Shown here: piece after piece, positions 15,167 through 48,225 of the stretch | Position numbering within the stretch: position 1 is the stretch's first letter | Layout of the letters: every line of letters begins with the position of its first letter | From: a virus | Reading direction: 5' to 3' (one strand) | Length of the DNA: 64,000 bases | IMG/VR virus record: IMGVR_UViG_3300028864_000019 | Coordinates: 47,870 to 111,869 of that record | Translations under genes and position numbers: made by a program | Notes under the pieces: generated by a model | What the model was told of the DNA's origin: nothing | Database searches by the model: none | The model's input: the letters and a program-made list of their open reading frames with translations, nothing else

Positions 15167-16212
15167 ACTAAAAGAGTTCCATCTTCTAAACTACCACATG
15201 ATTTTTGATGACTTAAACAACATTGACTTATACCACTTCTATCACAATTATAAAACTCTGAGGCTTCTCCTATACTGTTAAATTCTTTATTAGTTGTAAT
15301 ACATTTTACTTTCTTTTTTCTTTTTATACTTTGTAATTCAAGTGCCTTTTCTTTTGAATTCGCTTCATATATTTTTAAGTTTATATCAGCTTGTGTCATT
15401 TTTATAAAATCACTATATCTCACCCAAATACAAGGTTTATTATTCAGCATTCCTGCATATCTTTGTTTATTATCACAACATTTTAATATTGTACCTATAC
15501 TTATATTTTTTATATCTTTTTCATTATTAATTATATCTGATGGTCTATCATATATAATTTTTGTTTCAATATTTACAATTCTTTTATCATTAATTGAACA
15601 TTCCAATTCATATATTTTATCTTTTATCTTTTCAATATCTTCATTAGTTAATTTAGAATATTCTGATTCGTATATAAAATACATTTTTATACCTTTACCT
15701 TGTACTATATAAGCATTATTCATTGCCTTATATATACTCTTATAACTAGTATTGTAATATATTTTTGCAGTCTCTATAAGTTCAAAATGCTTATTATCTA
15801 TCACATTAACTATTTGTTTTGCATTGGGATTTTTATTTCCATCAAATACTCCTTGTTTCAATTCTGACATTCTTTTTCTAGTTTCTTCATTTTGTACACC
15901 GTTATGTCCACCATCATCATTATTATAACCATATAATCTATTATTGCTCTTATATAATACTATGTAGGATTTTTCTTTAATATCTAATTCATCTTTACTA
16001 AAAGCATAATCAATAATATCTAATTTAAAATTATCTACTCCATATTTTTTAGCAGAATCCTTTAAATGCTTATTCTTTGAATATATCCACCATTCTCCTG
16101 CTGGATATCTCCTATTAAACTTATTTTTAGTTTGTCCAATATAAACTTTTTTATTAATTTGGTTTGTAATTCTATATATGATACCATATATTTTTAAATT
16201 ACCTATTTTCAT
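15151..16212 (-). CDS. GIY-YIG homing endonuclease with NUMOD-type DNA-binding repeats
   Basis: YGIIYRITNQINKKVYIGQT...R, E, GYN motifs; ETRKRMSE; KKVKCITTNKEFNSIGEAS. Confidence 0.9.
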   Translation of the reverse strand: MKIGNLKIYGIIYRITNQINKKVYIGQTKNKFNRRYPAGEWWIYSKNKHLKDSAKKYGVDNFKLDIIDYAFSKDELDIKEKSYIVLYKSNNRLYGYNNDDGGHNGVQNEETRKRMSELKQGVFDGNKNPNAKQIVNVIDNKHFELIETAKIYYNTSYKSIYKAMNNAYIVQGKGIKMYFIYESEYSKLTNEDIEKIKDKIYELECSINDKRIVNIETKIIYDRPSDIINNEKDIKNISIGTILKCCDNKQRYAGMLNNKPCIWVRYSDFIKMTQADINLKIYEANSKEKALELQSIKRKKKVKCITTNKEFNSIGEASEFYNCDRSGISQCCLSHQKSCGSLEDGTLLVWEYC

Positions 16213-16320
16213 GATGCATCAACCTTCCTTTTTTAATTTATTATCAACCTATTTAATATATAAGGGAAAACGTAGGTTGAAACGTCTTTCATTCAATTGA
16301 TCAGATTGAACTATCCCTCT
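16213..16320 (-). ncRNA. structured 5' leader RNA, copy A
   Basis: GGGA..TCCC outer stem; TTCAAT-CTGATCA-ATTGAA hairpin; second hairpin loop TTCAACCT complementary to two downstream AGGTTGA sites; homologous to 26758-26868. Confidence 0.7.
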
Positions 16321-16401
16321 TATATAATACAACATAGCTTTCTATTTTGGGTACTTTTTTATAATTTTTTAATTTATTTTTACTTGAAAACGTCAATCTA
16401 T

Positions 16402-16510
16402 TAGATACTAATAAATGAAAGTTTCGCTATTTATTAGTATCTATAAATTTGACTGTTTGTTTTTATAGATACTAATAAATCAAAGTCTTACCATAGCGTC
16501 AATACTAATA
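16402..16510. repeat. TAGATACTAATAAAT repeats (direct at 16402 and 16466, inverted at 16429)
   Basis: Exact 15-mers read directly; partial copy at 16501. Confidence 0.85.
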
Positions 16511-16611
16511 CGCCAGTATAGTGTAGTAATATAACTAAATAACAATATAATCCATCAGTAATAAAATCCATAAGAAGATGAATTTACAGTTTCGCTAAAG
16601 CTCAACCCCTG

Positions 16612-17538
16612 CTACGCCTTTTCGTTTGGTTTCTTTTCTTCTTTTTCTTTTGTTAGTTCTTCATATTGTTCTGTTAGTAGCTTTATATTTTCAATATCAA
16701 TTATGTTTGCTTGTCCTTCTTCTTGTCTTTTCTTTAGATATTTTAATTTGTTTGTAATTGACCTTTTTAAGTTACTCTTATCTTTGTTTCTTTGATTTAC
16801 TTTTATAAATCCTTTTTTGATTCTTTCAATATTTAATCTTTGTAATAGTAGATCTTCATTTCCTGTTCTAGTATAAAACATATTGCCATTCTTAATTTGT
16901 CCTTTTGAAGTCTCTTTAAATCCTGCATAATCAAATACAAATATGTTTAAATCTCTAAGTATATTTATGTATTTTAAAGCTGTCTTTTCTGTTATTTCAG
17001 ACATCTCAGCTATTTTAATTATACTTGGAAATCCTAATAAATAATCTTCAGCTTGTACATTGTTATTAAAGGTACTGCATATGTATATGTAAGTTTTGAT
17101 TAATGAATATGTATCAATTTTGTTTTTATTACTATAATTTATTAATAACTCAATTTCACTATCTAGTATCATTGTAAAACCACTATCACCTATTTCATTA
17201 AATAACTCTGCAAAGATTAAGTCATTTTTGTTATAATCAATTATACTTTCTATAGTATCTTTGTCTTTTAAATATATATTATTGTAGTAAACTAATATTT
17301 CATCATTATAAAATGTTTGTAATATAGTTCTTATTTCCTTTTTGCCATATGTATTATTAGATTTTATTTGTAAAGATTTATATAACCATTCTAAATTAAA
17401 AATGCATGTGTCCTTTGAGTTCCTAGACATATATAATAATGTTAAAACCGTTAATTCTTTAGGATCAAGCTCCTTATCATCTTTAATTAAATTATTAGGT
17501 ATTCTTGTAAATTTTCCTTGTAGTTGTCTTTCTTCCAT
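16612..17538 (-). CDS. winged-HTH replication-initiator-like protein (paralog of 32893..33870)
   Basis: FTRIPN N-terminus; GFPSIIKIAEMSEITEKTALKYINILRDL HTH. Confidence 0.55.
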   Translation of the reverse strand: MEERQLQGKFTRIPNNLIKDDKELDPKELTVLTLLYMSRNSKDTCIFNLEWLYKSLQIKSNNTYGKKEIRTILQTFYNDEILVYYNNIYLKDKDTIESIIDYNKNDLIFAELFNEIGDSGFTMILDSEIELLINYSNKNKIDTYSLIKTYIYICSTFNNNVQAEDYLLGFPSIIKIAEMSEITEKTALKYINILRDLNIFVFDYAGFKETSKGQIKNGNMFYTRTGNEDLLLQRLNIERIKKGFIKVNQRNKDKSNLKRSITNKLKYLKKRQEEGQANIIDIENIKLLTEQYEELTKEKEEKKPNEKA

Positions 17539-17584
17539 ATATTTTTATATCTCCTTTTGCTTTTTGATTATTTGATTTATGTAA

Positions 17585-17782
17585 TTATTTTTCTAATCCT
17601 TTATATTGACTCATGGCTTCAGTAAGTTCTGGCGTATTTTTGAATAACCATACAACTTTTTTAGGTTCGAATATATTGGGTAAAGTATCAACTATTTCAA
17701 AACCCTTATCAGTTAAAAATTTAGTCATTGCTATAGTTCTAATTACATAATTCTCTTTATTGTTATTATTTACTTTATTCAT
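17585..17782 (-). CDS. small DUF5659-like protein
   Basis: FLTDKGFEI...KKVVWLFKNTPEL pattern. Confidence 0.55.
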   Translation of the reverse strand: MNKVNNNNKENYVIRTIAMTKFLTDKGFEIVDTLPNIFEPKKVVWLFKNTPELTEAMSQYKGLEK

Positions 17783-18099
17783 AATACTTCATTCCTTCTT
17801 TTATATATTCTTTATCCTCTCTTATTCTGTATTAATTTATCATTCATTCAGCATCTTATCAGCAACCTTTCAATGTTATTTATACTTATCATATATAATA
17901 CAAAAGTTTTCTGTGATTTGGGTACTTTTTATATATTAATTTATTGAGTTACTATCATTTGTTTATAGATTACTTAAAAAGTAGTCACTTCTCCCTTCAA
18001 CTTTTATTGTACTACTAAAGGATTATATTGTCAAGCTTGCTTTAATTTGTTATATATTATTATAAAGCTAAATAAAAAGACCAACTATAAAAGCTGATC

Positions 18100-18822
18100 T
18101 TAATTATATAGATTTTGATTTATAGATACATGAGAATGAAGTATACCTTCTTGACCATAATTACTTATAGAACCTTTTGCAATTACTTCAGTTTCAAAAG
18201 TATTTGTTCCATCATTATATTCATTACCTTGTTTTGCCATCTCATAATGTACAAGTTCATGAATTAAAACTTTTTCCGCTTTAATTTGATTTAAGTTACC
18301 TGATAAATCTGAATCTATAATAATTTGTATTGGTTTATTGTCTATTGTAAAAGTTGTTAATCCATTTATTTTCATATTAGAATCTGAGCTATTATATACC
18401 TTATTGAATACAATTGGAATGTTTAAAGTATCATTATAATTATCTTTTAGGAATTGTTGAGCGTATTGTGTTAATTCTGCGTCAGTTTGTAAGCTATTAG
18501 TATATGTAGTTCCGTCTGTTCCTAAGTTATATAGTTCTCTAAAATTTATAGCTGATCGCATTTGAATGATTTCATTATCTTTTAGTGTGATTGTAGCTTT
18601 ATCATTTACTTGCCATCCGTCAGAACCTTCTTCATTTTCCATTAGATAAGTTTTATTATTGTCTGATTGGATTGTTACTGTTGAGTCTGTTACGCTTGTT
18701 ATAGTTGCATTATGATTCTCTATTGTAGTTGCTTGGACTAATTGAGTTGGTGATATGATTATTAATAGTGTAATAACTCCTGTAAATATAGTTGCTTTTA
18801 TTAGAGTTGATATTGATTTCAT
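18100..18822 (-). CDS. secreted SprT-like zinc metalloprotease
   Basis: Signal peptide; VLIHELVHY HExxH motif. Confidence 0.65.
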   Translation of the reverse strand: MKSISTLIKATIFTGVITLLIIISPTQLVQATTIENHNATITSVTDSTVTIQSDNNKTYLMENEEGSDGWQVNDKATITLKDNEIIQMRSAINFRELYNLGTDGTTYTNSLQTDAELTQYAQQFLKDNYNDTLNIPIVFNKVYNSSDSNMKINGLTTFTIDNKPIQIIIDSDLSGNLNQIKAEKVLIHELVHYEMAKQGNEYNDGTNTFETEVIAKGSISNYGQEGILHSHVSINQNLYN

Positions 18823-19503
18823 TATGATTACTCCCCTTTATTTATATATTAATTTGTTATATTTATTATTATACTCTCATTATATGCGTTAATCAAATAA
18901 ATTATAAAATAAATATATACATATATAATGAAGAGATTCTTTAAGTGTTGGTTATTAAGTGATCCAATATAGATTGTTAGCATTGTATTATTTATGTTAT
19001 TAGTTCCATTACAAGGTAGTATATAAGGATTATATGAGGTTCTATTGATTAAGTTATACAATTGTACTGTTATCTAGTTAATTGTTATATAGCCTTTATA
19101 TATGTACATCTTATTAATGTTATTAGTACAATTGGATCTGCTTTATAATGTATACTATTGTTATTGGTATAATAGTATTGTTTGTAATAAGTTATAATAA
19201 AGTTGTGCTTCATATTGACGTTGTATGAGGTCTTAGAGTTGTTAGTAATGTAATTGGTTGTCTTGATAGCTAAGTGTTGTATAAGGTTGTTAAGTTAGTT
19301 ATAATAGATTTGTTATATTGTAGTGTTATTGTATCATTTATTACTGGTATTAGTGTATTGAGTTCATATAGTGTTTGATTATAATTATATGTTAGTGTTT
19401 GCTTTTATTATGATATACTATATAAATATATGTGTTATACTAATTATGTATTGTGATATACTATATAGAAGAGTATTTATATTGTACTATTGTGTTAATA
19501 CAA

Positions 19504-19696
19504 TGTGTATAAGTCTATCTATATTGTGGATAACTATTTTAATTTGTTATACTTATATTGTATTGGCATTATCGGTTACCTGTTATTATGCTTAATTATG
19601 TGCTATTATAAAGGTTATTTGTATAATGTTAGTTATATTGGTTGTGGATAAGTCTGTTGATAACTTGTTCTTTATATGTTGATAACCTGTGTATAA
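19504..19696 (-). promoter_or_regulatory. cluster of six co-oriented DnaA-type boxes
   Basis: Plus-strand TGTGGATAA at 19525 and 19643 (perfect TTATCCACA), TGTGTATAA at 19504 and 19688, TGTTGATAA at 19655 and 19677. Confidence 0.7.
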
Positions 19697-21027
19697 GTTT
19701 AGTTAGTATAATATTGATTATAAGTGTTGCAATCATCGACAACATTTGTCCACGATTATTCAAGTCAACTTCAAAACAATCAATCGTATTTTTAAATTGT
19801 ATTCAATCAAACTGTCTCTTACTATCTATTCAGCTTATACTGGTCAAGTGATCCAATGTCACCTATTTAAGTTAAGATAAAAGCAACATTTTAACAATAG
19901 ATGATATAAGTTATCAATTAAATAGTGTTCGTATCTGTTCAAATTATTCAACTAAATATGTATTTAATGGAATTGTTGTTGAAGTGTTGGTATGACTTGT
20001 CTGTAGGGTTTTATGTTGTGAATTAGTGGTTATTTAATGTGGTTGATAATGGTTATTAATGTTTGGTTATTTGTTTTAATACATAGTATTCCTATAGGGG
20101 CGGTGCATTTACATTGTTATGTTCATTATCTGAACGCAATAGTCGGACATCACATATATCGGCATACCAACTTTGGAGTGTAGCGATTGGTAAAACACGA
20201 ACGTTAATCAAAATGTGTATCGGTTGTGCTTTCGTTCAGCCTTGTTATACCAATACTTTAACTTATTTTTAAGTCATATATTTTACCATATTTACTACCC
20301 AATAACCCTCAAACCCACTAATACCAACCACTCACACGAACTCCACTCTATAACAGTTATATAGCACACATCGTAAAATAAATTCAAACAACCTCAACCT
20401 GTTACTATCACTACTCTAACACCAATTATTCACACCCTATTAAAACCCCGTCACGACAACTCCCTATCGTTAATTAAAATTCAAAAGATAATTAAAAAAC
20501 AATTCAAAATAAAAAAGAGCCTACAGAAAAATATTCTGCAAACTCAATTTGCTAATTATTTAATTATTAATATAAACTCAAAATATCAAAATCAACTACA
20601 ACCACTCTCTCACAAATTCTAAACCCTATCTACACTTATACCTAAAATAATCTATACCCTACTTACAATCCATCTCTAAGCTTGTCTAAATTACAAATCT
20701 ATAAAAATAAATATACCAATCAAATAATTAATTCAGCAAACAAAAAAGAGACTGCTCTAAATTAATTAAAATTCAAAACAGTCCCAATTGGAATAGAATG
20801 TTTACACAACTACATTATATCATTTTGTCTATATCTTAACAACATCCTATATAGGATAAGGGAGGGGGTATATTTTTAAATCCAGAATCTAAGTACCTAA
20901 TATATAATACCCTACCCTATATAAAATTGGACATAAAAATAAGACCATACTAATTAAATATGATCTCAACTTAAATACTAAAAGCCAATACATTATTACT
21001 CCTACTATATAATCTACCAACCAATAA

Positions 21028-21333
21028 TCAAATCCTAGCAATTTCAATATAACTTTTCATTAACTCCTTAACATCAGTATCACTAAGCCTATTTACAATA
21101 TCAACTGTAATATCATTGAATTGGTTTACCTCATTACTCATAAAAATTAAAACCAATACTTGTACTAAAAACATTAATTCTAATCCAACTATACCAATTA
21201 GATTCTTATTTGTTATTATCTTAATTAAACTATTATTCATTTTATTGCTATGTTCTTTTCTTATTTCCTTTAATGTAATTTCACCTGATTTATATTTATT
21301 GTATTGGGCTATTGTCATTGTTGTTGTTTTCAT
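21028..21333 (-). CDS. hypothetical membrane protein
   Basis: One TM segment; GGAG RBS. Confidence 0.55.
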   Translation of the reverse strand: MKTTTMTIAQYNKYKSGEITLKEIRKEHSNKMNNSLIKIITNKNLIGIVGLELMFLVQVLVLIFMSNEVNQFNDITVDIVNRLSDTDVKELMKSYIEIARI

Positions 21334-21842
21334 ATTAATATTCTCTCCATTACTTTATTATAGTATATACTATGAGTCAAACTTTTAATTTGTGCTATAT
21401 TGTTAAATTAAATTTCTAGTATCTAAATCTCATAATAATATAGTATTAAATAACTTTTAACTTTCGTTTGTAATAAAGTATTCATTACTACTTTCCTTAA
21501 CTAATACTATCTTAGATTTAGTTCTTTCTGTTAATAAAAAATATCCTTCTAAAATGCACACCTTATCATAGATTAATATTTGATACCAGTCTATCTTTTC
21601 CATAAGTAACCTAATAACTTGAACCTTATCATAATTATTAAAATCTTCTATATTTATGTTCTTTAATGTAAATTTAAAATCTCCAATAGTAAATTCAATA
21701 TTTGTATAAAAAGATACACCTTCTTGTATCTCTTCATCTGTCATTTCTTTTATTGATTTAGTTTGTCCTTTCGCCATATATAATACAACTCTTTATATAA
21801 TTAATTACTATATAGTATATGCAATAGTATACTTAAAGTTTC

Positions 21843-22253
21843 TTAAAATAACCTTAACGCCATATCAAAAACACAAATAACTAATAATACCCATCCAACA
21901 ATCTCAATTGCTTTATCAAAGATTCCACCTGTTAAGAATAATCTCAATCCATATCTCTTATTTTTTAATGGCATAAATAATGGTATTCCACTTCTAGTCA
22001 TGCTATCCAATACTAAATGACTTGAATAGGACACAAACCAAATTAAGGCAATTTCTTTGCTAAATATATTTATAATTAATGTTGTAAATAACAAAAATAT
22101 CAAACTATGTGTAAATGTTCTATGGAATGTCATACCAAGTTTACAATCCAAATCTGGAGCAATTGAACCAAAAATTCCCAATAACCCTAATGGACTTGCC
22201 AGCATGGGAATACTTACCAATGTACCTATAACTAAATGTGTTTTCTTTGTCAT
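21843..22253 (-). CDS. YdjM-like membrane metal-dependent hydrolase
   Basis: TH, PDLD, HRTFTHS, SHLVLDSMT..G.PLF.P motifs. Confidence 0.85.
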   Translation of the reverse strand: MTKKTHLVIGTLVSIPMLASPLGLLGIFGSIAPDLDCKLGMTFHRTFTHSLIFLLFTTLIINIFSKEIALIWFVSYSSHLVLDSMTRSGIPLFMPLKNKRYGLRLFLTGGIFDKAIEIVGWVLLVICVFDMALRLF

Positions 22254-22743
22254 CGTAAAATCACGCTCCTTTTGTCGCTACGCAAGCCATGCCACTCCTA
22301 CCCTTCCTATCGCTTAGGCTTTTTATTAGGTTAAATAGGGCTTTATACTTGTACTATTTGTCTAGTTATACTTTATGTCCTATAGTCTATATTTCCGTAT
22401 CTATCGTATTACTGTACCTTATATCGTAGTTTACTATATAAAGCTTATTGTATTATTTCTTATCTTCTATATAGTATTCTCTATTTTACTTAAAACTATA
22501 CTATGTATTTAAATTTAAACGCAAAAAATAAGACCATAACTTAATATGATCTTAATAATTTAAGTATTATATAATTTAAAATAGTACCTGACTAAACAAC
22601 AATGCATAGTATTATAATTAATATTGTAAATAATAAATGTGCTATTGTTTACATATCTAGTTTTCTTTCTATTTTATAGATTACAAGCATCATAAATTAC
22701 TTTTTTAAGTTTATACGTATAATTTTCCTATCTCTTAAAACTA

Positions 22744-22968
22744 TTAACTTGCAAAACTAGCTAACCATTTTATAAAACTACCAACCCAACCTTCACTTAT
22801 ACTGAAGCTAACACTATTTAACCATGTAAAAAGGTATATTCCTGTTCCAACCCAACCACATAACACCATTAATTCTCCAAATTCTTTTTTACCCATACAT
22901 TTAAATATTTTAGATGATATAAAACTAGCTGATCCAACTACTATGACATTTGATATCATATTAAACAT
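22744..22968 (-). CDS. small two-TM protein, SpoIIIAC/AD-like
   Basis: SKIFKCMGKKEFGELMVLCGWV pattern. Confidence 0.45.
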   Translation of the reverse strand: MFNMISNVIVVGSASFISSKIFKCMGKKEFGELMVLCGWVGTGIYLFTWLNSVSFSISEGWVGSFIKWLASFAS

Positions 22969-22976
22969 ATTATCAC

Positions 22977-23183
22977 CTATCCTATATGTGAAATTACTTG
23001 AATTAATTTTACTACTCCAGCAATTGCACTTATAGCTATTTGACTATACCCTGCAATGCTTACATATTGTCCCATTTCTGTTTTCCCTAAATTGTTTAAT
23101 ATTTTTTCTCCTACTATTGAAGCTACTCCTAAAGATGTTAAACCTGCTATTACTACTGCGTTCATATTATATCTCTCCCTCAT
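22977..23183 (-). CDS. small two-TM protein, SpoIIIAC/AD-like
   Basis: EKILNNLGKTEMGQYVSIAG pattern. Confidence 0.5.
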   Translation of the reverse strand: MRERYNMNAVVIAGLTSLGVASIVGEKILNNLGKTEMGQYVSIAGYSQIAISAIAGVVKLIQVISHIG

Positions 23184-23475
23184 TATTATTTATTATTTAA
23201 TACAATTCTATTATTTTTCTGTCATAATCTACCTCATAAGATTCCACACTATATAAATCATAAATTACTTCTTCCATATCTTGTTCAGTGTTTATTTTAA
23301 AATCATTACATTCATTATAATATTCTCTATAGTCTTTTATAAAATTTTTAAAAGCAATTGTTTTCATATTTATTTCACCTCACATGTATATTATCTAAAT
23401 TTAAGGTAATACTATTTATCATAAGGGATACAAGAATTTGAATATCATCAGTTTTCAAATTCTTGTATATGAACA

Positions 23476-23820
23476 TTATTTTACGTTGGCTTTTGGAAAT
23501 TGAATCACATTAGATTTAGCCTTGGACTGAGATTGGGACTTTTTAGTTTTAGTCTCAGTTTTTGCTTTAACTTTTTTAGGTTGCTCAATTTCTTTATAAT
23601 TTGCACACATGTTCTTGACAACTTTCCTAAGTTGAATTGTTACAAAATGAGTAACTTTATATGCAGTTTTAAATGTTCCTATAATTAATCTTCTTACGCT
23701 TCTTGGTACAAGTAATAATGCTACATTGACAAGAACCATCATTAATATTAATTGACCTAGTGAGTTTATTATGTATTTCATAAGAAATACCTCCTTCTTA
23801 AAGTTTATTTCATATCTCAA
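23476..23820 (-). CDS. membrane-anchored basic protein
   Basis: N-terminal TM, Lys-rich tail. Confidence 0.55.
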   Translation of the reverse strand: MRYEINFKKEVFLMKYIINSLGQLILMMVLVNVALLLVPRSVRRLIIGTFKTAYKVTHFVTIQLRKVVKNMCANYKEIEQPKKVKAKTETKTKKSQSQSKAKSNVIQFPKANVK

Positions 23821-24163
23821 AAAGTGAGATAGCTTATCGTAAGTTTACTGAAATTGATTTGCTAATTACCAATAACTTATAATATAAATATCATTACAAT
23901 GATTCATCTAGTATATAGTCAACTATTTATACTGAATACCAATTAAGATTAAGTATTCAAACTTGACTTTCATTGCATATCTAGTATAAATAATCAAGCC
24001 ATATACTAGATAAATATTGTAGTGATACCATATCATAAGTCTAGTAATTACATATCAATTCTTAAACTTATGATATATATCTATCTTTTGAAATTAGAAT
24101 AATCTTATTCAGAATATTCTTTCTTTTGTGATATGTATTCCTCCTTCAAGGAGGGGTATTTTA

Positions 24164-24790
24164 TTAATAGCATAATACTTTTGCTATATCTTCCATATTC
24201 ACATCTAATTGAGTTATTTTAAATTGAGTATCATTTTCTGCTTCATAATCTTTATTTGTATTTTGGATTATTATAAGTCGTGGCATTGTTAGTTCTTCTT
24301 CCCCTGTTTCTTCGTTTATTGCCCTTGTTTTATCCAATATGGCATTTATAGTATCGTTATCTTTAAATCGTTTTAAATCTATATAATCATGTCTAATTTG
24401 CATTTCTACAATTTGATAATACATGTTTCCATCAAATTTAAAAGATACATATAGATCTGGTTTAATATTATTAAATACAGGTTCTATCTCTATTTCTTGA
24501 ATATCACATCCTAAAGTTTTCAATCCACACAAATATTCTAAAACTTTTATATTATGAATAGATACTCTTTTTATTTTAGAATCATATGGTACATAAACGA
24601 GTTCGTTGGTTTCTTGATTTTTAAAAACTCTGATATATTCTCCCATTTCAGCAATCTTTTTAAGTCTCTTTCTTGCAACATCATATGCATAACGTTTTTT
24701 TGTAAAATACATATCTGCTATATTTTTTATTGTTGCGTAGCCAATAGTCTCTATAAAATCTATTATCAGTTTATCTCTTTCAACTATCAT
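24164..24790 (-). CDS. replication-relaxation (Replic_Relax)-like protein
   Basis: ERDKLIIDFI wHTH, ARKRLKKI, H, IKPD, IVEMQ PD-(D/E)xK-like; coupled to FtsK gene. Confidence 0.7.
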   Translation of the reverse strand: MIVERDKLIIDFIETIGYATIKNIADMYFTKKRYAYDVARKRLKKIAEMGEYIRVFKNQETNELVYVPYDSKIKRVSIHNIKVLEYLCGLKTLGCDIQEIEIEPVFNNIKPDLYVSFKFDGNMYYQIVEMQIRHDYIDLKRFKDNDTINAILDKTRAINEETGEEELTMPRLIIIQNTNKDYEAENDTQFKITQLDVNMEDIAKVLCY

Positions 24791-26277
24791 AATTTTCTTT
24801 TCCCTTCATTAATTGATTTTTTAGTATTACTAGGTAATTTAGTCTTATCAATAATAGTCATTCCTGTATAATTATCATAAGGAACACAATTAGGTATCTT
24901 AGACATGCCTTCTTCTAGCATTTCCTTTTCTGTTTTAATACGAGTGCCTACTTCTACTAACTTTCTCTTTCCTTGTTTAACTCCATCCCTATGTTGTAAT
25001 TTCTCTAAGTCATCAAACAATGTTCTGTGATTAGGTTTAATAAAAGGTTTTATATATTCATATATTTTTTTATTATCAACTATTGGAACTAATCCGTATT
25101 CCCATGAATCCAAATGATAAACTATTTCTCTTCTCTTTAAATCTAACGCCCTTTTGCTATCATCTGTGGCTATTTCACTTGACTTCTGATTTGCCTGTCT
25201 ATATGATATATTTATATTTGACATTGCTTTTATGAAGCTAGGGATATTATCAACTGTACTTCTTTGTACACTACTATAAAGAAAGACTGAAAGTGAAGCC
25301 CCGTATTGTGCAATGGATTCGATATATCCACTTATTTCTTCTTTAAGTTTCTTTTCATCACTACCATTACCTTTTGTTTGAAAAAGTGCCATCATTTCAT
25401 CAAAAGCAATCAGTATCATAGGTTCTTTTGTAAAAACCTTCTTTAACTCATTATATTCAAAGATATTATCAACTATTGCTTTTTTCCTATAAGGTTTTAT
25501 TTTTGAAATTCTATCAGGTATAATTACTTCTTTTATATATTTCAATACGTCTCTTGTTTTCTCTAAAGTATCTGCAAAAGCTTTAGTATGAATTACATCC
25601 TCATATAGGCAGAGATCATTTTTTGCCACTTGACACAAGTACAATTGTAAATCTTCTGGACTACAATTTACTATTAAATTAGTTATCGTACAATCTTCTC
25701 CTTTTGATTTTCCGCTTCTTGTAGTTCCTGATACTAATAGATGTGGATTTTTTCTCAAATCTCCAAATATAGCATTTCCAGCAAAATCATTGCATATAAA
25801 TAGCTTATAAGGACTTTTCTCTTTAATAATTTCAAATCCCTTTTTGTCATTTTGATTAAATATAAACTTAGCATTTATCCATTTACTAGCCTTTGAATGA
25901 TTAAATATAATACAACAACCTAAATTCTCTTCTATCATATCTCTTTGAGAGTCTAATTTATCAAATGTTAAAGGTGGAACTATATATATCTGTCCAGATA
26001 AACCGTAGGGTGTGAATTTGATTTTATTAAGAGCATAAGTAAAATACATTTTGTTATAAAGCCCTGATAAAGTCATAATATCTAACCATGTATTTTTAAA
26101 TTTATTTATAACCGAAGATTTTTTAGATTCTTTTATTTCTTCTTTTTCCATTATTGCTATACATATTTTTTTGATTTGTTGTTCTAGTCGCCCTTGGCAT
26201 TCTTTTTCTTCAGTGTTATCAGGTATTGTTTTAGGTTCTTTTACTTCTTCTTTTATTTCTTGTTTTAATAATTGCAT
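24787..26277 (-). CDS. FtsK/SpoIIIE-family ATPase
   Basis: PHLLVSGTTRSGKS Walker A, IAFDE Walker B, VQR motif. Confidence 0.88.
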   Translation of the reverse strand: MQLLKQEIKEEVKEPKTIPDNTEEKECQGRLEQQIKKICIAIMEKEEIKESKKSSVINKFKNTWLDIMTLSGLYNKMYFTYALNKIKFTPYGLSGQIYIVPPLTFDKLDSQRDMIEENLGCCIIFNHSKASKWINAKFIFNQNDKKGFEIIKEKSPYKLFICNDFAGNAIFGDLRKNPHLLVSGTTRSGKSKGEDCTITNLIVNCSPEDLQLYLCQVAKNDLCLYEDVIHTKAFADTLEKTRDVLKYIKEVIIPDRISKIKPYRKKAIVDNIFEYNELKKVFTKEPMILIAFDEMMALFQTKGNGSDEKKLKEEISGYIESIAQYGASLSVFLYSSVQRSTVDNIPSFIKAMSNINISYRQANQKSSEIATDDSKRALDLKRREIVYHLDSWEYGLVPIVDNKKIYEYIKPFIKPNHRTLFDDLEKLQHRDGVKQGKRKLVEVGTRIKTEKEMLEEGMSKIPNCVPYDNYTGMTIIDKTKLPSNTKKSINEGKRKL

Positions 26278-26721
26278 ATCGTTTCCTCCTTTCTTTTAAT
26301 ATATACTATGATATTTCTTATTGATGTGTTACAACTTTTTTATTTTAGAATGTGGAATTTTTAGATTCTTTATTTAGTCTATCTATTTTCCTTACTCGTG
26401 ATCTAACATTCATCATTTCTATTTTATTCTCTTTGCTATTACCTTTAAAACAATAAACTGTATATGCAATGGTCATAGAAGCTAACCATCCACCTGCTAA
26501 TATTAATATTTGTTGCATTGTCTTTAACTCCTTATTGATTTCTTATAATATATACTATTCGATAATGATTTAAATGATACCCATTTAATGAAAATAATCA
26601 TTAAATAATTACAAAAATCAGTCAAAAACATCTAAATTTACATAATTTTTAGTAGTTTTAAATGATTATTTTGATTAAAATAGATATAAACTATAATCAA
26701 AACAAATTAATATAATAACAA

Positions 26722-26750
26722 TTGACAAGTAATATTCTTTGTGATATACT
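26722..26750 (+). promoter_or_regulatory. sigmaA promoter TTGACA-N17-TATACT
   Basis: Read directly; predicted start site just before the leader RNA. Confidence 0.8.
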
Positions 26751-26757
26751 AATCTTA

Positions 26758-26868
26758 AGGGATAGTTTAGTCTGATCAACTAAATGATAAAGGAGTATCA
26801 ATCGCCCTTCCCTACTATATTTAGGATTGATAACAAATTAAAATACATATTGAAAGGATTGATTGTTA
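26758..26868 (+). ncRNA. structured 5' leader RNA, copy B
   Basis: GGGATAG-TTTAGT-CTGATCA-ACTAAA-TGA...TCCC; loop TATCAATC complementary to GATTGATA (26825) and GATTGAT (26857, overlapping the SD). Confidence 0.7.
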
Positions 26869-28278
26869 ATGGAAGAAAAGAAAATTAAACAAGAAAAATT
26901 TAAAAAGGTGTTTTTAGATGATTTACCACATGGAGGTAAAGGTGTTAAAAATTCAAGTATAAATTGGTTGGAATCTAAAAATTATAAAGTAAGATTCATT
27001 TATAACAATGTTGAAGGTTGGGTAGAAATTACAGAAGTTAAAAGAGAAAATGGAAAAACTATGTTAGGTATAAAATATTTAGATAATGATATATTTTATA
27101 TATTTACAGGTCACTTTCAACAATGTAAATTAAAAGAATTACTTGGACTAATAAACCATGATTACGTATATAAAGTTAATGAAATAATAAAAGACGAAAA
27201 AAGAAATCTATTAATATTAGAACAATTTTATATAAACGGATATAGATATTATAAATATGAATGTTTGAATTGTAGATATATTGGTACTATAGCTGAAAGT
27301 CATTTAAAAGAAGGAAAAAATTGTTCAATTTGCTCACATCAAAAAGTTCAAAAAGAAATTAATTCAATATGGGCAACTGATAATGAATTAGTTAAATATT
27401 TTGTTAATGAAGAAGAAAGTTATAAATATCCACATTATAGTGAACAATCTATTAAAGTAAAATGTCCTGATTGTGGGTCTATACGAAAAATATCAATAAT
27501 ATCTTTATATATAAATGGATTCACTTGTCCAAAGTGTGGTGATGGAATTTCTATGCCTAATAAAATGATGTTTAACGTATTAGAACAATTATTAGAATTA
27601 GACAATTTCAAAAGAGAATATTCACCAGAATGGATAGGCAGAAGATTATATGATTTTTACTTCATATATAATGAAAAAGAATATATAATTGAAATGGATG
27701 GTGGTTTAGGTCATGGTAATATGGTATATAATGAAAATAATATGACTTCAGAAGAATCCTTAGAAATTGATGACTACAAAGATAAAATGGCTGTTGAACA
27801 TGGAATGCAAAAACCTATTCGAATTGATTGTAATCCCAGCAAATTTGATTATATAAAAAATAATATATTAATGGATGATAGACTAAATAAACTATTTGAT
27901 TTGTCTAAAATTGATTGGAATAATGTTTTTCAATATACTTTAACAAATCAAATGAAAGAAGCTTGTGATTTATGGAATGATGGTAAAAATGTTAAAGAAA
28001 TAAGTAATGTTTTTAAAATTAGTACAGGTGCGATTCGTAGATATTTGAATGATGGAAATAAGTTAAATTTGTGTCATTATAATGGATCTGAAAATAGTAA
28101 GAATAGTAATATAAGAAATGTAATATGTATAGAATATAATTTGATGTTCAATTCCATAACAGAATGTGTAGAACAATTATCAAAAATGTTAAATTTAAAA
28201 TTCAATATATGTAATATATCAGAGGTATGTAAAGGTAATAGAAAAACTCATAATAAATTACACTTTGAATTTGCATAA
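26863..28278 (+). CDS. zinc-ribbon, PD-(D/E)xK/Vsr-like homing endonuclease with NUMOD1-type tail
   Basis: Repeated CxxC; YDFY..IIEMDGGLGH; C-terminal FNSITEC...ISEVCKGNRKTH. Confidence 0.7.
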   Translation: MLMEEKKIKQEKFKKVFLDDLPHGGKGVKNSSINWLESKNYKVRFIYNNVEGWVEITEVKRENGKTMLGIKYLDNDIFYIFTGHFQQCKLKELLGLINHDYVYKVNEIIKDEKRNLLILEQFYINGYRYYKYECLNCRYIGTIAESHLKEGKNCSICSHQKVQKEINSIWATDNELVKYFVNEEESYKYPHYSEQSIKVKCPDCGSIRKISIISLYINGFTCPKCGDGISMPNKMMFNVLEQLLELDNFKREYSPEWIGRRLYDFYFIYNEKEYIIEMDGGLGHGNMVYNENNMTSEESLEIDDYKDKMAVEHGMQKPIRIDCNPSKFDYIKNNILMDDRLNKLFDLSKIDWNNVFQYTLTNQMKEACDLWNDGKNVKEISNVFKISTGAIRRYLNDGNKLNLCHYNGSENSKNSNIRNVICIEYNLMFNSITECVEQLSKMLNLKFNICNISEVCKGNRKTHNKLHFEFA

Positions 28279-28384
28279 ATTTTTAAAGCTTAGATTAATT
28301 TCTAGGCTTATTTTTTAATTGAAAACAAAAAAGCACCTACAATTAAAAAATGTAAGTGCTTGGACTGTTATTATTTATATTTGT

Positions 28385-29467
28385 TTAACTCCAAAAATCT
28401 GCATTCATCATATCTCGTAATTTTTGTTTTGTTGCAACTGGCTCTTCCTTGTTTGTATCTTTAGATGTGGTATTATTACTTTTATTTTTACTACCATTTT
28501 CTCTAAATTCAAATACTTTTTCTTCATCTTCTAATTCTTCGTCTTTCATATTATCATAAGCTTCTTGAAGAGTTTGTATATATTCATCTGGACTTGTTAC
28601 CCCACCAAGTACCATTAAATTCTTACTGCCATAATCGGTCTTTCCCCACATTTTAGCTTTAAATAATTCTTTCCATTCATCTTTATCATATATACCCTTT
28701 TCAAATATACCTCCCATATAAGAACAATCTAAATTATTAGGCATTACAAAAGGAGAATTATCCATACTATAATCTACTGCATCTACTAATGATTTGAATT
28801 TATCAGCCAATGGTAATATTACTTTATATTTGTTTGCTGAATTAATCATTTTAGTATCATTAATATCTACTGCCCCTTCTTGTAATTCATATGAATCTAA
28901 AATTAATTTCATACATAGTTTGTTAAATTCGTCTTCATTTTGCATTTTGTCATTGTCTATATATTGATAAGAATTGACTACCCCTTGAACTCTTAATTTT
29001 GTAATTTTTGAATGTAATTTAAGTGCATTTCCTATTGTTGTCTTTCCTTCTGACAATGCTGGCATAGCAACAACTAAATTAATTGCTAATTTTGAATTTA
29101 AATGCCTTAATACGTTAGTTAATGTTGTAAGTGAACCACCTCCAAATCCGCCACCACTAGCTAGATATATTGACGCAACATCATAATTATCTGTTTTATT
29201 AGCAAGGAAATTTATAAATTTACTTCTATCTTTTGATATGCTTTCTTGTGCTACATCTTGATTCCTTCCTGTACCACCACCATTTATTGCCAAGCCATTA
29301 ATAGTTGAATTATAGTGTTTTAATCTCTTCATTTCATTTATGTTAGAGTTCACAAATACACCATCGTATACCGATTGTAATACGTTTTCTGAATTATCTA
29401 ATAAATCCATGAAAGTATCTAATAGTTTATTACCTGTACCACCTGTCCCAATATTTAGTACGTTCAT
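28385..29467 (-). CDS. tubZ: TubZ, tubulin/FtsZ-like partition GTPase
   Basis: IGTGGTGNK, GGGTGRN, SGGGFGGG signature loop, IDND, VDIND. Confidence 0.85.
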   Translation of the reverse strand: MNVLNIGTGGTGNKLLDTFMDLLDNSENVLQSVYDGVFVNSNINEMKRLKHYNSTINGLAINGGGTGRNQDVAQESISKDRSKFINFLANKTDNYDVASIYLASGGGFGGGSLTTLTNVLRHLNSKLAINLVVAMPALSEGKTTIGNALKLHSKITKLRVQGVVNSYQYIDNDKMQNEDEFNKLCMKLILDSYELQEGAVDINDTKMINSANKYKVILPLADKFKSLVDAVDYSMDNSPFVMPNNLDCSYMGGIFEKGIYDKDEWKELFKAKMWGKTDYGSKNLMVLGGVTSPDEYIQTLQEAYDNMKDEELEDEEKVFEFRENGSKNKSNNTTSKDTNKEEPVATKQKLRDMMNADFWS

Positions 29468-29470
29468 TTC

Positions 29471-29734
29471 TTAACACATCCCCTTTAATTCTAATAATTC
29501 TTTCATTCCCTTTTCAGTAACAATATAACTTTTTGCATTTTTAACTGATAATCCGTTTTCAATCAATCCTTGGTTGAAAAAATTCAATAATGTATTAGTT
29601 ACTTTTGTTATACTCATTCCTGTTTTATCCATAATTTCTTTTTTAGTAGTACCATTTGTTTTTATATTACCTTTGGTTTTATCATTTTCACTTAAAATAC
29701 TTTGAAGTATTTTAAAATCGTTTTGCGTTATCAT
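29471..29734 (-). CDS. tubR: TubR-like winged-helix centromere-binding protein
   Basis: 87 aa wHTH (TKKEIMDKTGMSITKVTNTL...YIVTEKG) immediately upstream of tubZ. Confidence 0.65.
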   Translation of the reverse strand: MITQNDFKILQSILSENDKTKGNIKTNGTTKKEIMDKTGMSITKVTNTLLNFFNQGLIENGLSVKNAKSYIVTEKGMKELLELKGMC

Positions 29735-29845
29735 TATTGTGATTTCACCTCACTTTTAGATAAGTATAACAAATATATAATTATAAATCAATAGTAATTT
29801 TAAAAATATCGTATCTGTATAGTATTTTAATTTTGTAACTGTTTT

Positions 29846-29980
29846 AATATACTATATGTTTAATATACAAATAGTGTTACTATAGTTGTTAAATACTTTA
29901 TAAATAGTGTAACTATAAAAGTATAGTAGTTTATATATACTATATGGATAGTGTATGATTAGTTTATAAATAGTGTGTAA
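29846..29980. repeat. candidate tubC centromere / promoter repeats
   Basis: AAATAGTGT x3, TTTATAAATAGTGT x2, ATATACTATATG x2 between tubR and tubY. Confidence 0.45.
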
Positions 29981-30150
29981 GTAAATCTAAAGTATCTCAT
30001 TTAGTAAGTAAAGTAAAGTGAAACTTAAAATATCAAAAACTTAACTAAATATAAATTATCATAAAAACAAATATAATAATAGTGATTACTTTTTATTACT
30101 TTATGGTATACTTATAATATAATTAGAATTCATAAAGGAGTGATTTAGAT

Positions 30151-45698: not shown

Positions 45699-45788
45699 GG
45701 AGAGTTGGCAGAGTGTCCGAATGCACTGGTTTGCTAAATCAGCATACGTTTATTCGTATCGAGGGTTAGAATCCCTCACTCTCCTCCA
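45699..45788 (+). tRNA. tRNA-Ser (GCT), atypical
   Basis: GGAGAGT/ACTCTCC acceptor, CTGGT-TTGCTAA-ATCAG anticodon arm, long variable arm, GAGGG-TTAGAAT-CCCTC T arm, encoded CCA. Confidence 0.88.
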
Positions 45789-47628: not shown

Positions 47629-48225
47629 ATGGGAGAAGTATATCAACAACGGAATTTATTGCTAGAAGAAATCAAATTAGTAGATTACAAAGATAATAAT
47701 ACACTATATATTGATGATGAAATTACAACTGAATTTATAATAATGTTATCAAGACAATTAAAGAAACTTGCCACTAAACAACTATCATTGAGCAAGGAAG
47801 ATAGAACACCAATAAAATTAATCATAGCTTCTCCAGGAGGAAGTTTAGTTGATGGAATGCATTTTTGTGACCTAATGGAATATTACATTAATAAAGGGAT
47901 AGAAATTCATACATATTGTACAAGCTATGCTTATTCAATGGCATTCAAAATATTTATATGTGGATCTAAAAGATTTGTATATAAGAGAAGTGATTTAATG
48001 TGACACCAATGGAATAGATTTAGATACGGTACTGAGACATATCAAGATACTGTAAATGATAGAGAGCAATGCGATAGATGGTACAAGTTAATAGTTGATT
48101 TAATAACTGAGAAAACAGGTATAACTAAAGAACAATTTGATAGCTATACAAAGAGTAATAAAGACTTTTATATGGATGGTGCTACTGCTTTAAAATTAAA
48201 TGTTGCTGATGAAATAATTATATAA
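47629..48225 (+). CDS. ClpP-like serine protease interrupted by in-frame TGA at 48001
   Basis: IASPGGSL, AYSMA (Ser), SDLM*HQ (His), KDFYM (Asp), ALKLNVADEII; frame stays open to TAA at 48223-48225. Confidence 0.85.

Follow-up and report, generated by a model that had tools for sequence, protein, structure and literature searches.

A covarying leader RNA, apparently a divergent form of int-alpA, precedes two unrelated nuclease genes of a phage

The stretch of DNA analysed here, hereafter the window, comprises 64,000 nucleotides (nt) of the virus record IMGVR_UViG_3300028864_000019 (positions 47,870 to 111,869 of that record) and carries, on opposite strands, two nuclease-related genes that are each preceded by a copy of one and the same leader element. 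An initial annotation, made from the letters alone, had described the two copies, A and B, as a covarying pseudoknot leader RNA, and on re-reading the sequence we found every letter and coordinate of both copies to be as given there. The core of each copy is predicted to fold as a three-way junction in which helix P1 closes two arms, P2 and P3, and the loop of P3 is complementary to two downstream boxes, the second of which lies on the ribosome-binding site (RBS). Copy A and its gene comprise the following features.

16323-16331, minus strand: candidate extended -10 element, TGTATTATA, ending about 6 nt ahead of GGG
16264-16317, minus strand: leader core, three-way junction, from the fold of a 59-nt core and from covariance models
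16317-16311, minus strand: GGGATAG, read from the sequence
16310-16292, minus strand: P2, TTCAAT / CTGATCA / ATTGAA, with the CUGAUCA loop at 16304-16298
16291-16289, minus strand: TGA between P2 and P3
16288-16267, minus strand: P3, AAGACGT / T-TCAACCT / ACGTTTT, with the putative anti-RBS loop UCAACCU at 16280-16274
16250-16244, minus strand: box 1, AGGUUGA, complementary to the P3 loop and 12-13 nt past P1 (duplex -10.6 kcal/mol)
16225-16219, minus strand: box 2, AGGUUGA, complementary to the P3 loop
15151-16212, minus strand: GIY-YIG homing-endonuclease-like gene, 353 amino acids (Pfam PF01541, E 3.6e-7)

Copy B is laid out in the same order on the other strand.

26722-26750, plus strand: promoter, TTGACA, 17 nt, TATACT, with an upstream TG, ending 8 nt before GGG (11 of 12 consensus positions, the best site in the region)
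26759-26812, plus strand: leader core with P1 GGG/CCC, from sequence reading and covariance models
26759-26765, plus strand: GGGATAG, read from the sequence
26766-26784, plus strand: P2, arms TTTAGT/ACTAAA, with the CTGATCA loop at 26772-26778
26790-26809, plus strand: P3, AAGG...CCTT (AAGG/CCUU in RNA), with a 12-nt loop
26825-26832, plus strand: box 1, GATTGATA (in RNA GAUUGAUA), complementary to the P3 loop and 12 nt past P1 (duplex -9.1 kcal/mol)
26857-26863, plus strand: box 2, GATTGAT (GAUUGAU in RNA; duplex -7.5 kcal/mol)
26869-28278, plus strand: zinc-ribbon nuclease-like gene, 469 amino acids, of the phage DUF4379 / DUF723 / NUMOD group, from phrog_4538 and Atlas neighbours
28286-28319, plus strand: terminator-like hairpin and T run closing the cassette

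P1 of copy A is likewise GGG/CCC, with CCC at 16266-16264 (26810-26812 in copy B), and the P3 loop of copy B contains TATCAATC (in RNA UAUCAAUC) at 26796-26803. In copy A, box 2 takes in the spacer as well as the 3' part of the Shine-Dalgarno sequence, GGAAGG, and stops 6 nt short of the ATG at 16212; in copy B it lies 5 nt ahead of the ATG at 26869, overlapping the spacer and the end of the Shine-Dalgarno sequence, AAAGGA. A G.U pair in P3 of copy A makes the fold specific to the minus strand. The proteins encoded by the two genes have only a NUMOD-like C-terminal patch in common. The copy-B protein matches phrog_4538 (2.5e-60) and phrog_681, annotated 'endonuclease' (7e-6), its Atlas-feature neighbours are DUF4379 / DUF723 / NUMOD proteins, and its homologues are multi-copy in Staphylococcus phages. 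The PD-(D/E)xK label given to this gene in the initial annotation was not confirmed: Pfam and the PDB yielded no sequence match, and although a D..E-x-D-G...H string is visible in the protein, an AlphaFold2 model of the fragment holding the nuclease core was poor (predicted local distance difference test, pLDDT, 51.6).

Chance is excluded as the origin of what copies A and B share, since the window has exactly two matches to the signature GGGATAG-N-CTGATCA and 100 shuffles had none, and rare 7-mers cluster at the right place: AGGTTGA has nine sites in the window, three of them within about 65 nt at copy A, and GATTGAT has eleven, three of them within about 65 nt at copy B. A covariance model, R1, run on the window with its filters off, returned copy A at 31.9 bits, copy B at 30.7 bits and no others, and a second, long-arm model, R2, scored the copies at 52.4 bits (E 4e-15) and 52.1 bits, respectively. 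No further copies, diverged ones included, were found by the covariance models in the other 48 kb of the virus record, which has 111,869 bases in all. As had been claimed, P2 covaries, the copies differing at two positions that are both compensated (TTCAAT/ATTGAA against TTTAGT/ACTAAA), and downstream of the fold there are two complements of the P3 loop, one of them on the ribosome-binding region, with all three sites changing in concert.

More than 100 further copies with the same architecture exist in viral and bacterial DNA. A scan of IMG/VR with GGGATAG-N-CTGATCA gave mostly chance matches together with one set that had the full architecture, and a second pattern, in which the P2 loop was left free (GGGATAG..YGAMAAG..CTTCCC), gave at least 115 loci; when 100 of these were searched with R2, it matched 98 places. 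In an alignment of 30 relatives 95.6% of the cells at paired positions are paired and 14 of the 17 pairs have changed on both sides, in 131 cells, a level reached in none of 500 shuffles, while sliding the partners by 1-3 columns left 40-58% paired. Frequent G.U pairs among the relatives indicate that it is the sense-strand RNA that folds. The -10 element of the relatives ends 4-8 nt ahead of GGG and is TATAAT-like in one group and of the Bacteroidota type, TAnnTTTG, in the other, and this same placement in two unrelated promoter systems argues that the RNA starts at the fold. The comparison thus supports a leader located at the start of the transcript.

The proposal that the element accompanies unrelated nuclease families extends well to these relatives, which precede GIY-YIG, HNH, HNH-repeat and DUF4379 nucleases and also tyrosine integrases, the latter including two leaders with the window's own signature, L016 and L120. 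Peptide patterns found no close relatives of either window nuclease in IMG/VR, and megablast of the region and of two relatives gave no match to cultured phages. A viral contig with one of the leader-bearing DUF4379 nuclease genes also carries an RT-18 RNA (RF03021, 72.4 bits; L011:5457-5537, minus strand).

The potential of the P3 loop to pair with the two boxes is conserved as well. Among 39 non-redundant leaders, 29 have two sites of at least 5 nt for the P3 loop within the same leader, as against 6.8% of 1482 swapped pairings, and the mean energy of the loop-box duplex is -11.4 kcal/mol for own and -5.7 kcal/mol for swapped pairings (p 4e-19). In these 39 leaders P1 is separated from box 1 by a median of 12 nt, box 1 from box 2 by 17 nt and box 2 from the start codon by 3 nt. 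In the group with Bacteroidota promoters the boxes are arbitrary words (GUUAGC, CAUCAGUUA) that do not resemble a Shine-Dalgarno sequence and box 2 still abuts the AUG, which argues that the selected property is pairing of the loop at the ribosome-landing site and not likeness to a Shine-Dalgarno sequence. The leaders therefore contain what characterises an anti-RBS leader, a segment that matches the ribosome-binding region by complementarity and changes in step with it. Pairing of the untranslated region with the early coding region gave no signal (-13.0 for own and -12.2 for swapped pairings). Taken together, the covariation of 30 leaders and the loop-box complementarity of 39 bear out a shared leader RNA with a loop-to-downstream pseudoknot.

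How new the element is depends on what it is compared with. The initial annotation had left its novelty to a check against Rfam, and that part stood in so far as no family of Rfam 15 detects the window copies; the element is, however, not wholly new, and on the comparisons below it belongs to the int-alpA class (RF02996), as an A+T-rich form with a long P2 and a short P1 that the curated model misses. The Rfam int-alpA model, whose curated gathering score is 35.8 bits, places the window copies below that score and gave no match at E <= 10 on either copy or on the whole virus record. Matches of Rfam DUF2815 and snoRNA families on the window (E 4-9) were put down to chance, and the only Rfam family that reaches its gathering score there is a tRNA gene (45699-45785, plus strand; RF00005, 51.1 bits). 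A likeness to hammerhead, pistol or other ribozymes, suggested by CUGAUCA beside CUGAUGA, was rejected, as CUGAUCA is a hairpin loop and varies in the relatives.

Kinship with int-alpA is indicated by the junction letters, the architecture and a series of graded intermediates. The window copies have the three-way junction with the int-alpA junction letters (UAG; GA(A/C)AAG; CU(U) before P1'), in the order P1, UA(G), P2, (Y)GA(A/C)AAG, P3 with a pyrimidine-rich loop, CU(U), P1', and their P3 loop has its complement in a purine-rich box further downstream, which in the Rfam model is the 3' AgGG. They differ in having a P1 of 3-4 pairs instead of 8 and a P2 of 6-7 pairs instead of 2-4, in being A+T-rich, and in their location, since the genes that follow encode a GIY-YIG nuclease and a zinc-ribbon nuclease-like protein and are neither integrase nor alpA. 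Between these extremes lie L016, the integrase leader already mentioned, which scores 26.6 bits with the Rfam model and matches it in layout (P1, UA, P2, GAAAA, P3, CU, P1'), and the intermediates L372 (30.3 bits), L387 (33.6 bits) and L369 (34.4 bits). Two Planctomycetales genomes that have copies with the signature also carry int-alpA matches above the cut-off together with 30-34-bit intermediates, and true int-alpA members can themselves have the CUGAUCA loop (L384, 46.7 bits; L392, 43.1 bits). In the opposite direction, R2 aligns the true members L371 (E 0.015) and L366 (E 0.049) and the intermediate L369 (E 2e-5) over all 56 positions. True members were found in 11 of 151 sampled Gammaproteobacteria genomes, with the same arrangement of a loop and its two boxes; in some a P2 of 2-3 base pairs (bp) is capped by a CUGAUCA or UAGCUA loop, and others have a GACG tetraloop. 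Pfam found no families in the open reading frames (ORFs) called after classical int-alpA matches, ORF calls in such G+C-rich DNA being unreliable.

We take int-alpA to be one of the candidates of Weinberg et al. 2017. The class goes unmentioned in the main text of that paper (PMC5737381), and the literature searched contained no functional study of it. A 2023 catalogue of candidate viral RNAs has about 8,500 unnamed entries, which may include the fold, although the text of that work does not discuss it.

Rfam types int-alpA as 'Gene; sRNA', and this label fits an alternative in which the junction acts in trans as a small RNA, freed by termination or processing in the linker so that free copies, possibly as two-loop dimers, occupy both boxes on full-length mRNAs. 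In keeping with it, the linker after P1 is U-rich in the relatives (52% T, 7% G), in classical members a U run comes after a P1 that is G+C-rich and 8 bp long, and two boxes per mRNA would suit a dimer with two loops. One relative (L125:12325-12381, plus strand) has the full fold and a U run after it, without matching boxes and with no ORF within 450 nt, and may be a stand-alone small-RNA form of the family. The window copies are less suited to such a role, since their P1 is just GGG/CCC and their linker is A/U-mixed, which would make a poor terminator, and almost every copy in the family directly precedes its own matching gene. We consider the trans-acting alternative distinctly improbable, and a leader that acts in cis on the gene it precedes is the reading followed here.

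A further feature, absent from the initial annotation, lies in the P2 loop, where a palindrome is under selection. The loop was left unconstrained in the collection, and among the matches listed 33 of 43 unique leaders have a perfect 6-nt palindrome there (in 2000 shuffle trials the mean was 5.3 and the maximum 15). Eight different palindromes occur, mostly of the form U-NNNN-A, preceded by AG and followed by one base (consensus AG-UNNNNA-A), and leaders with identical stems differ by the symmetric double change UGAUCA to UAAUUA. Both window copies carry UGAUCA, in 7-nt loops made up of C and the palindrome. The window as a whole is short of GATC (58 sites, against 159 +/- 12 in shuffles) and of TGATCA (6 sites, against 25 +/- 5), a shortage suggestive of restriction avoidance, the G+C content of the phage being about 25%; the leader loops account for two of the six TGATCA sites and have kept the word despite its avoidance elsewhere in the phage. 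Since a hexamer palindrome cannot pair inside its own loop, loop-loop pairing of two RNAs is the simplest reading, and the two UGAUCA leaders of the window could pair with each other. For the P2 hairpins of the window, which are weak and A/U-rich, an extended homodimer is computed at -16.8 kcal/mol, compared with -5.0 kcal/mol for two hairpins (2 x -2.5).

On a 33.6-kb viral contig (G156) three leaders (L396:1501-1557, L398 and L400) have the palindromes UGAUCA, UAAUUA and UCAUGA and three different loop/box words, which is what private dimerisation codes would look like. A rule of one palindrome per phage was discarded, because other multi-copy contigs do differ in palindrome; the genomes are too few for significance either way. 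Pairing of the P2 loop with GAUCA of 16S rRNA (1530-1534) was likewise discarded as the selected feature, as other members use UAAUUA, UAGCUA, UCGCGA and other words.

As P2 and its palindromic loop form a nearly continuous inverted repeat in DNA, it might be supposed that the element works as a DNA site, for instance as an operator or a cruciform, or in recombination or homing; I-TevI, for one, represses its own gene at an operator. However, the G.U pairs found in P2, P3 and the loop-box pairings are C.A mismatches on the other strand, the palindromes are asymmetrically flanked, the orientation to promoter and gene is fixed, and palindromes and boxes differ between copies within one phage, so that each copy would need a different protein. 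A DNA-level site is for these reasons scarcely credible, and we return to the RNA leader.

According to the mechanism that we favour, the leader would be the 5' end of a self-contained nuclease cassette, with an RNA that begins at or next to GGGAUAG and folds as a three-way junction of the int-alpA class, in its long-P2-arm subtype. Pairing of the P3 loop with box 1, about 12 nt past the fold, would form an H-type pseudoknot and leave the ribosome site open, and pairing of the same loop with the identical box 2 on the ribosome-binding region would block binding of the 30S subunit, so that the balance between the two pairings would set the amount of enzyme made. The self-complementary UGAUCA loops of P2 would most likely join two leader RNAs, a plausible input that might shift the balance as transcripts accumulate. 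We put the probability that the element is a cis-acting 5' leader of the int-alpA class, with an anti-RBS loop that alternates between box 1 and box 2, at roughly 0.6. The parts of this proposal differ in strength. The fold, its place at the start of the transcript, the complementarity and covariation of the three sites and the selection for palindromic P2 loops are well supported by comparison of the leaders; that the leader represses translation is probable; a true two-state switch, with which the decoy-versus-RBS idea of the initial annotation is consistent, we judge to be close to an even chance, if slightly short of it; and dimerisation as its trigger is a tentative suggestion.

Several observations weigh against this proposal. 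Copy A has no usable -35 element and no canonical sigma-70 site in a consensus scan, and in the absence of a recognisable -35 its transcript start is less certain. In copy B only four pairs of P3 are clean, and in model R2 two P3 positions are unpaired. The folding energies of the single sequences are no better than those of shuffles (z -0.7 to -1.6), and support for the fold therefore comes from comparison and not from thermodynamics. The nucleases do not require the leader, since the genes for close homologues in two cultured phages, Clostridium phage BG3P and Staphylococcus phage qdsa001, have promoters of their own and no leader. P2 of classical int-alpA members often ends in a GACG tetraloop and not in a palindrome, and dimerisation is therefore not essential to the int-alpA class as a whole. 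Finally, box 1 of most relatives is no shorter than box 2, pairs no less well and sits nearer the fold; a lone monomer should therefore favour the box 1 pseudoknot with the RBS free, and simple restraint of translation, or a switch, would need an extra input.

Such an input would be at hand if the element were riboswitch-like or protein-binding, with the invariant junction (GGGAUAG, YGA-AAG, CUUCCC) as a pocket for a universal ligand or host protein, the pseudoknot of loop and box 1 as part of the sensor and the pairing of loop and box 2 as the expression platform; an external signal would then explain how the RBS-pairing state is reached. From Bacillota-type and Bacteroidota-type examples to those of Planctomycetota and Gammaproteobacteria the junction letters indeed hardly change, unlike the freely varying stems, but the seed patterns demanded part of this conservation, which is thereby overstated. 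In addition, the downstream genes give no metabolic hint and no Rfam riboswitch matches, and we regard this explanation as unlikely. Alternatively, the fold might serve only as a 5'-terminal stabiliser that shields the mRNA from 5'-end-dependent nucleases and does not gate translation. A fold that starts at +1 and pairs the very 5' end would be apt for this, as would a monomer that favours the open RBS, but a stabiliser leaves unexplained both the co-variation of box 2 with the loop in 29 of 39 leaders and the palindromic P2 loops, and we hold it to be very improbable. The alternating anti-RBS leader can be extended to the view that the int-alpA class is a portable 'governor' of homing nucleases and integrases across bacterial phyla: a bistable anti-RBS switch whose input would be private palindromic kissing-loop dimerisation, with translation set by the concentration of its own transcript and with the two window cassettes cross-coupled through UGAUCA. 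In this full form the proposal is speculative and, we think, doubtful.

The elements of such a mechanism are familiar from elsewhere. In T-even-type phages the RBS of homing-endonuclease genes, intron-borne as well as free-standing (I-TevI, mobE), is reported by Gibb and Edgell to be sequestered by pairing within the mRNA. As in the reading proposed for the window leaders, endonuclease translation is there reportedly held down by pairing of the RBS, though the T-even hairpins are local, simple and confined to one gene, and are not known to have a conserved, portable three-way junction, a duplicate box or a palindromic loop. The dimerisation initiation site of human immunodeficiency virus type 1 (HIV-1) is a kissing-loop hairpin with a 6-nt self-complementary loop core. 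The leaders have the same kind of selected 6-nt core with unpaired flanking bases, and their palindrome is kept through symmetric changes; there is no relation in sequence or biology, and the leader dimers are predicted from energies. In hok mRNA the elements tac, ucb, dcb and fbi form programmed alternative pairings, and the transposase leaders of IS10 and IS200 bury the RBS. Like these, the leaders would quiet harmful or selfish genes through mutually exclusive RNA pairings at the RBS; unlike them, they have another architecture, they lack an antisense partner in the window, and their fold is modular and common to unrelated genes across phyla.

Turning to the surroundings of the two genes, leader A has about 85 nt upstream of it a perfect 15-bp A/T-rich inverted repeat, TAGATACTAATAAAT ... 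ATTTATTAGTATCTA (16402-16443, minus strand), which no T run follows. This repeat may serve for termination or processing between the copy A cassette and the gene that precedes it. Copy B is a self-contained cassette antisense to its FtsK-like and tubulin-like neighbours, an FtsK/SpoIIIE-family gene (24787-26277, minus strand; PF01580, 1e-12) and a tubulin/FtsZ-family GTPase gene (28385-29467, minus strand; PF00091, 9e-10), which flank it; the tubulin-like protein had no tblastn match among cultured phage records. Cassette B is the sole plus-strand gene within a block of minus-strand genes that runs up to about 29.5 kb, with plus-strand genes from about 30.1 kb, and the region of this strand switch (about 29500-30150), where the sign of the GC skew also flips, is probably a divergent promoter or origin region.

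To judge by the window copies and more than 100 relatives, the int-alpA class extends far beyond what its model detects, and it occurs in phages with Bacillota-type and with Bacteroidota-type promoters and in the genomes of Planctomycetota and Gammaproteobacteria. An orphan class would also gain a concrete, testable mechanism in its anti-RBS loop, duplicate decoy box and self-complementary loop. If this mechanism is true, a wider Rfam model is called for, and the leader would be a compact, programmable module of translation control, because loop and boxes can be of any sequence. It would likewise account for the way in which integrases and free-standing homing endonucleases stay at tolerable levels with no regulator dedicated to each gene.

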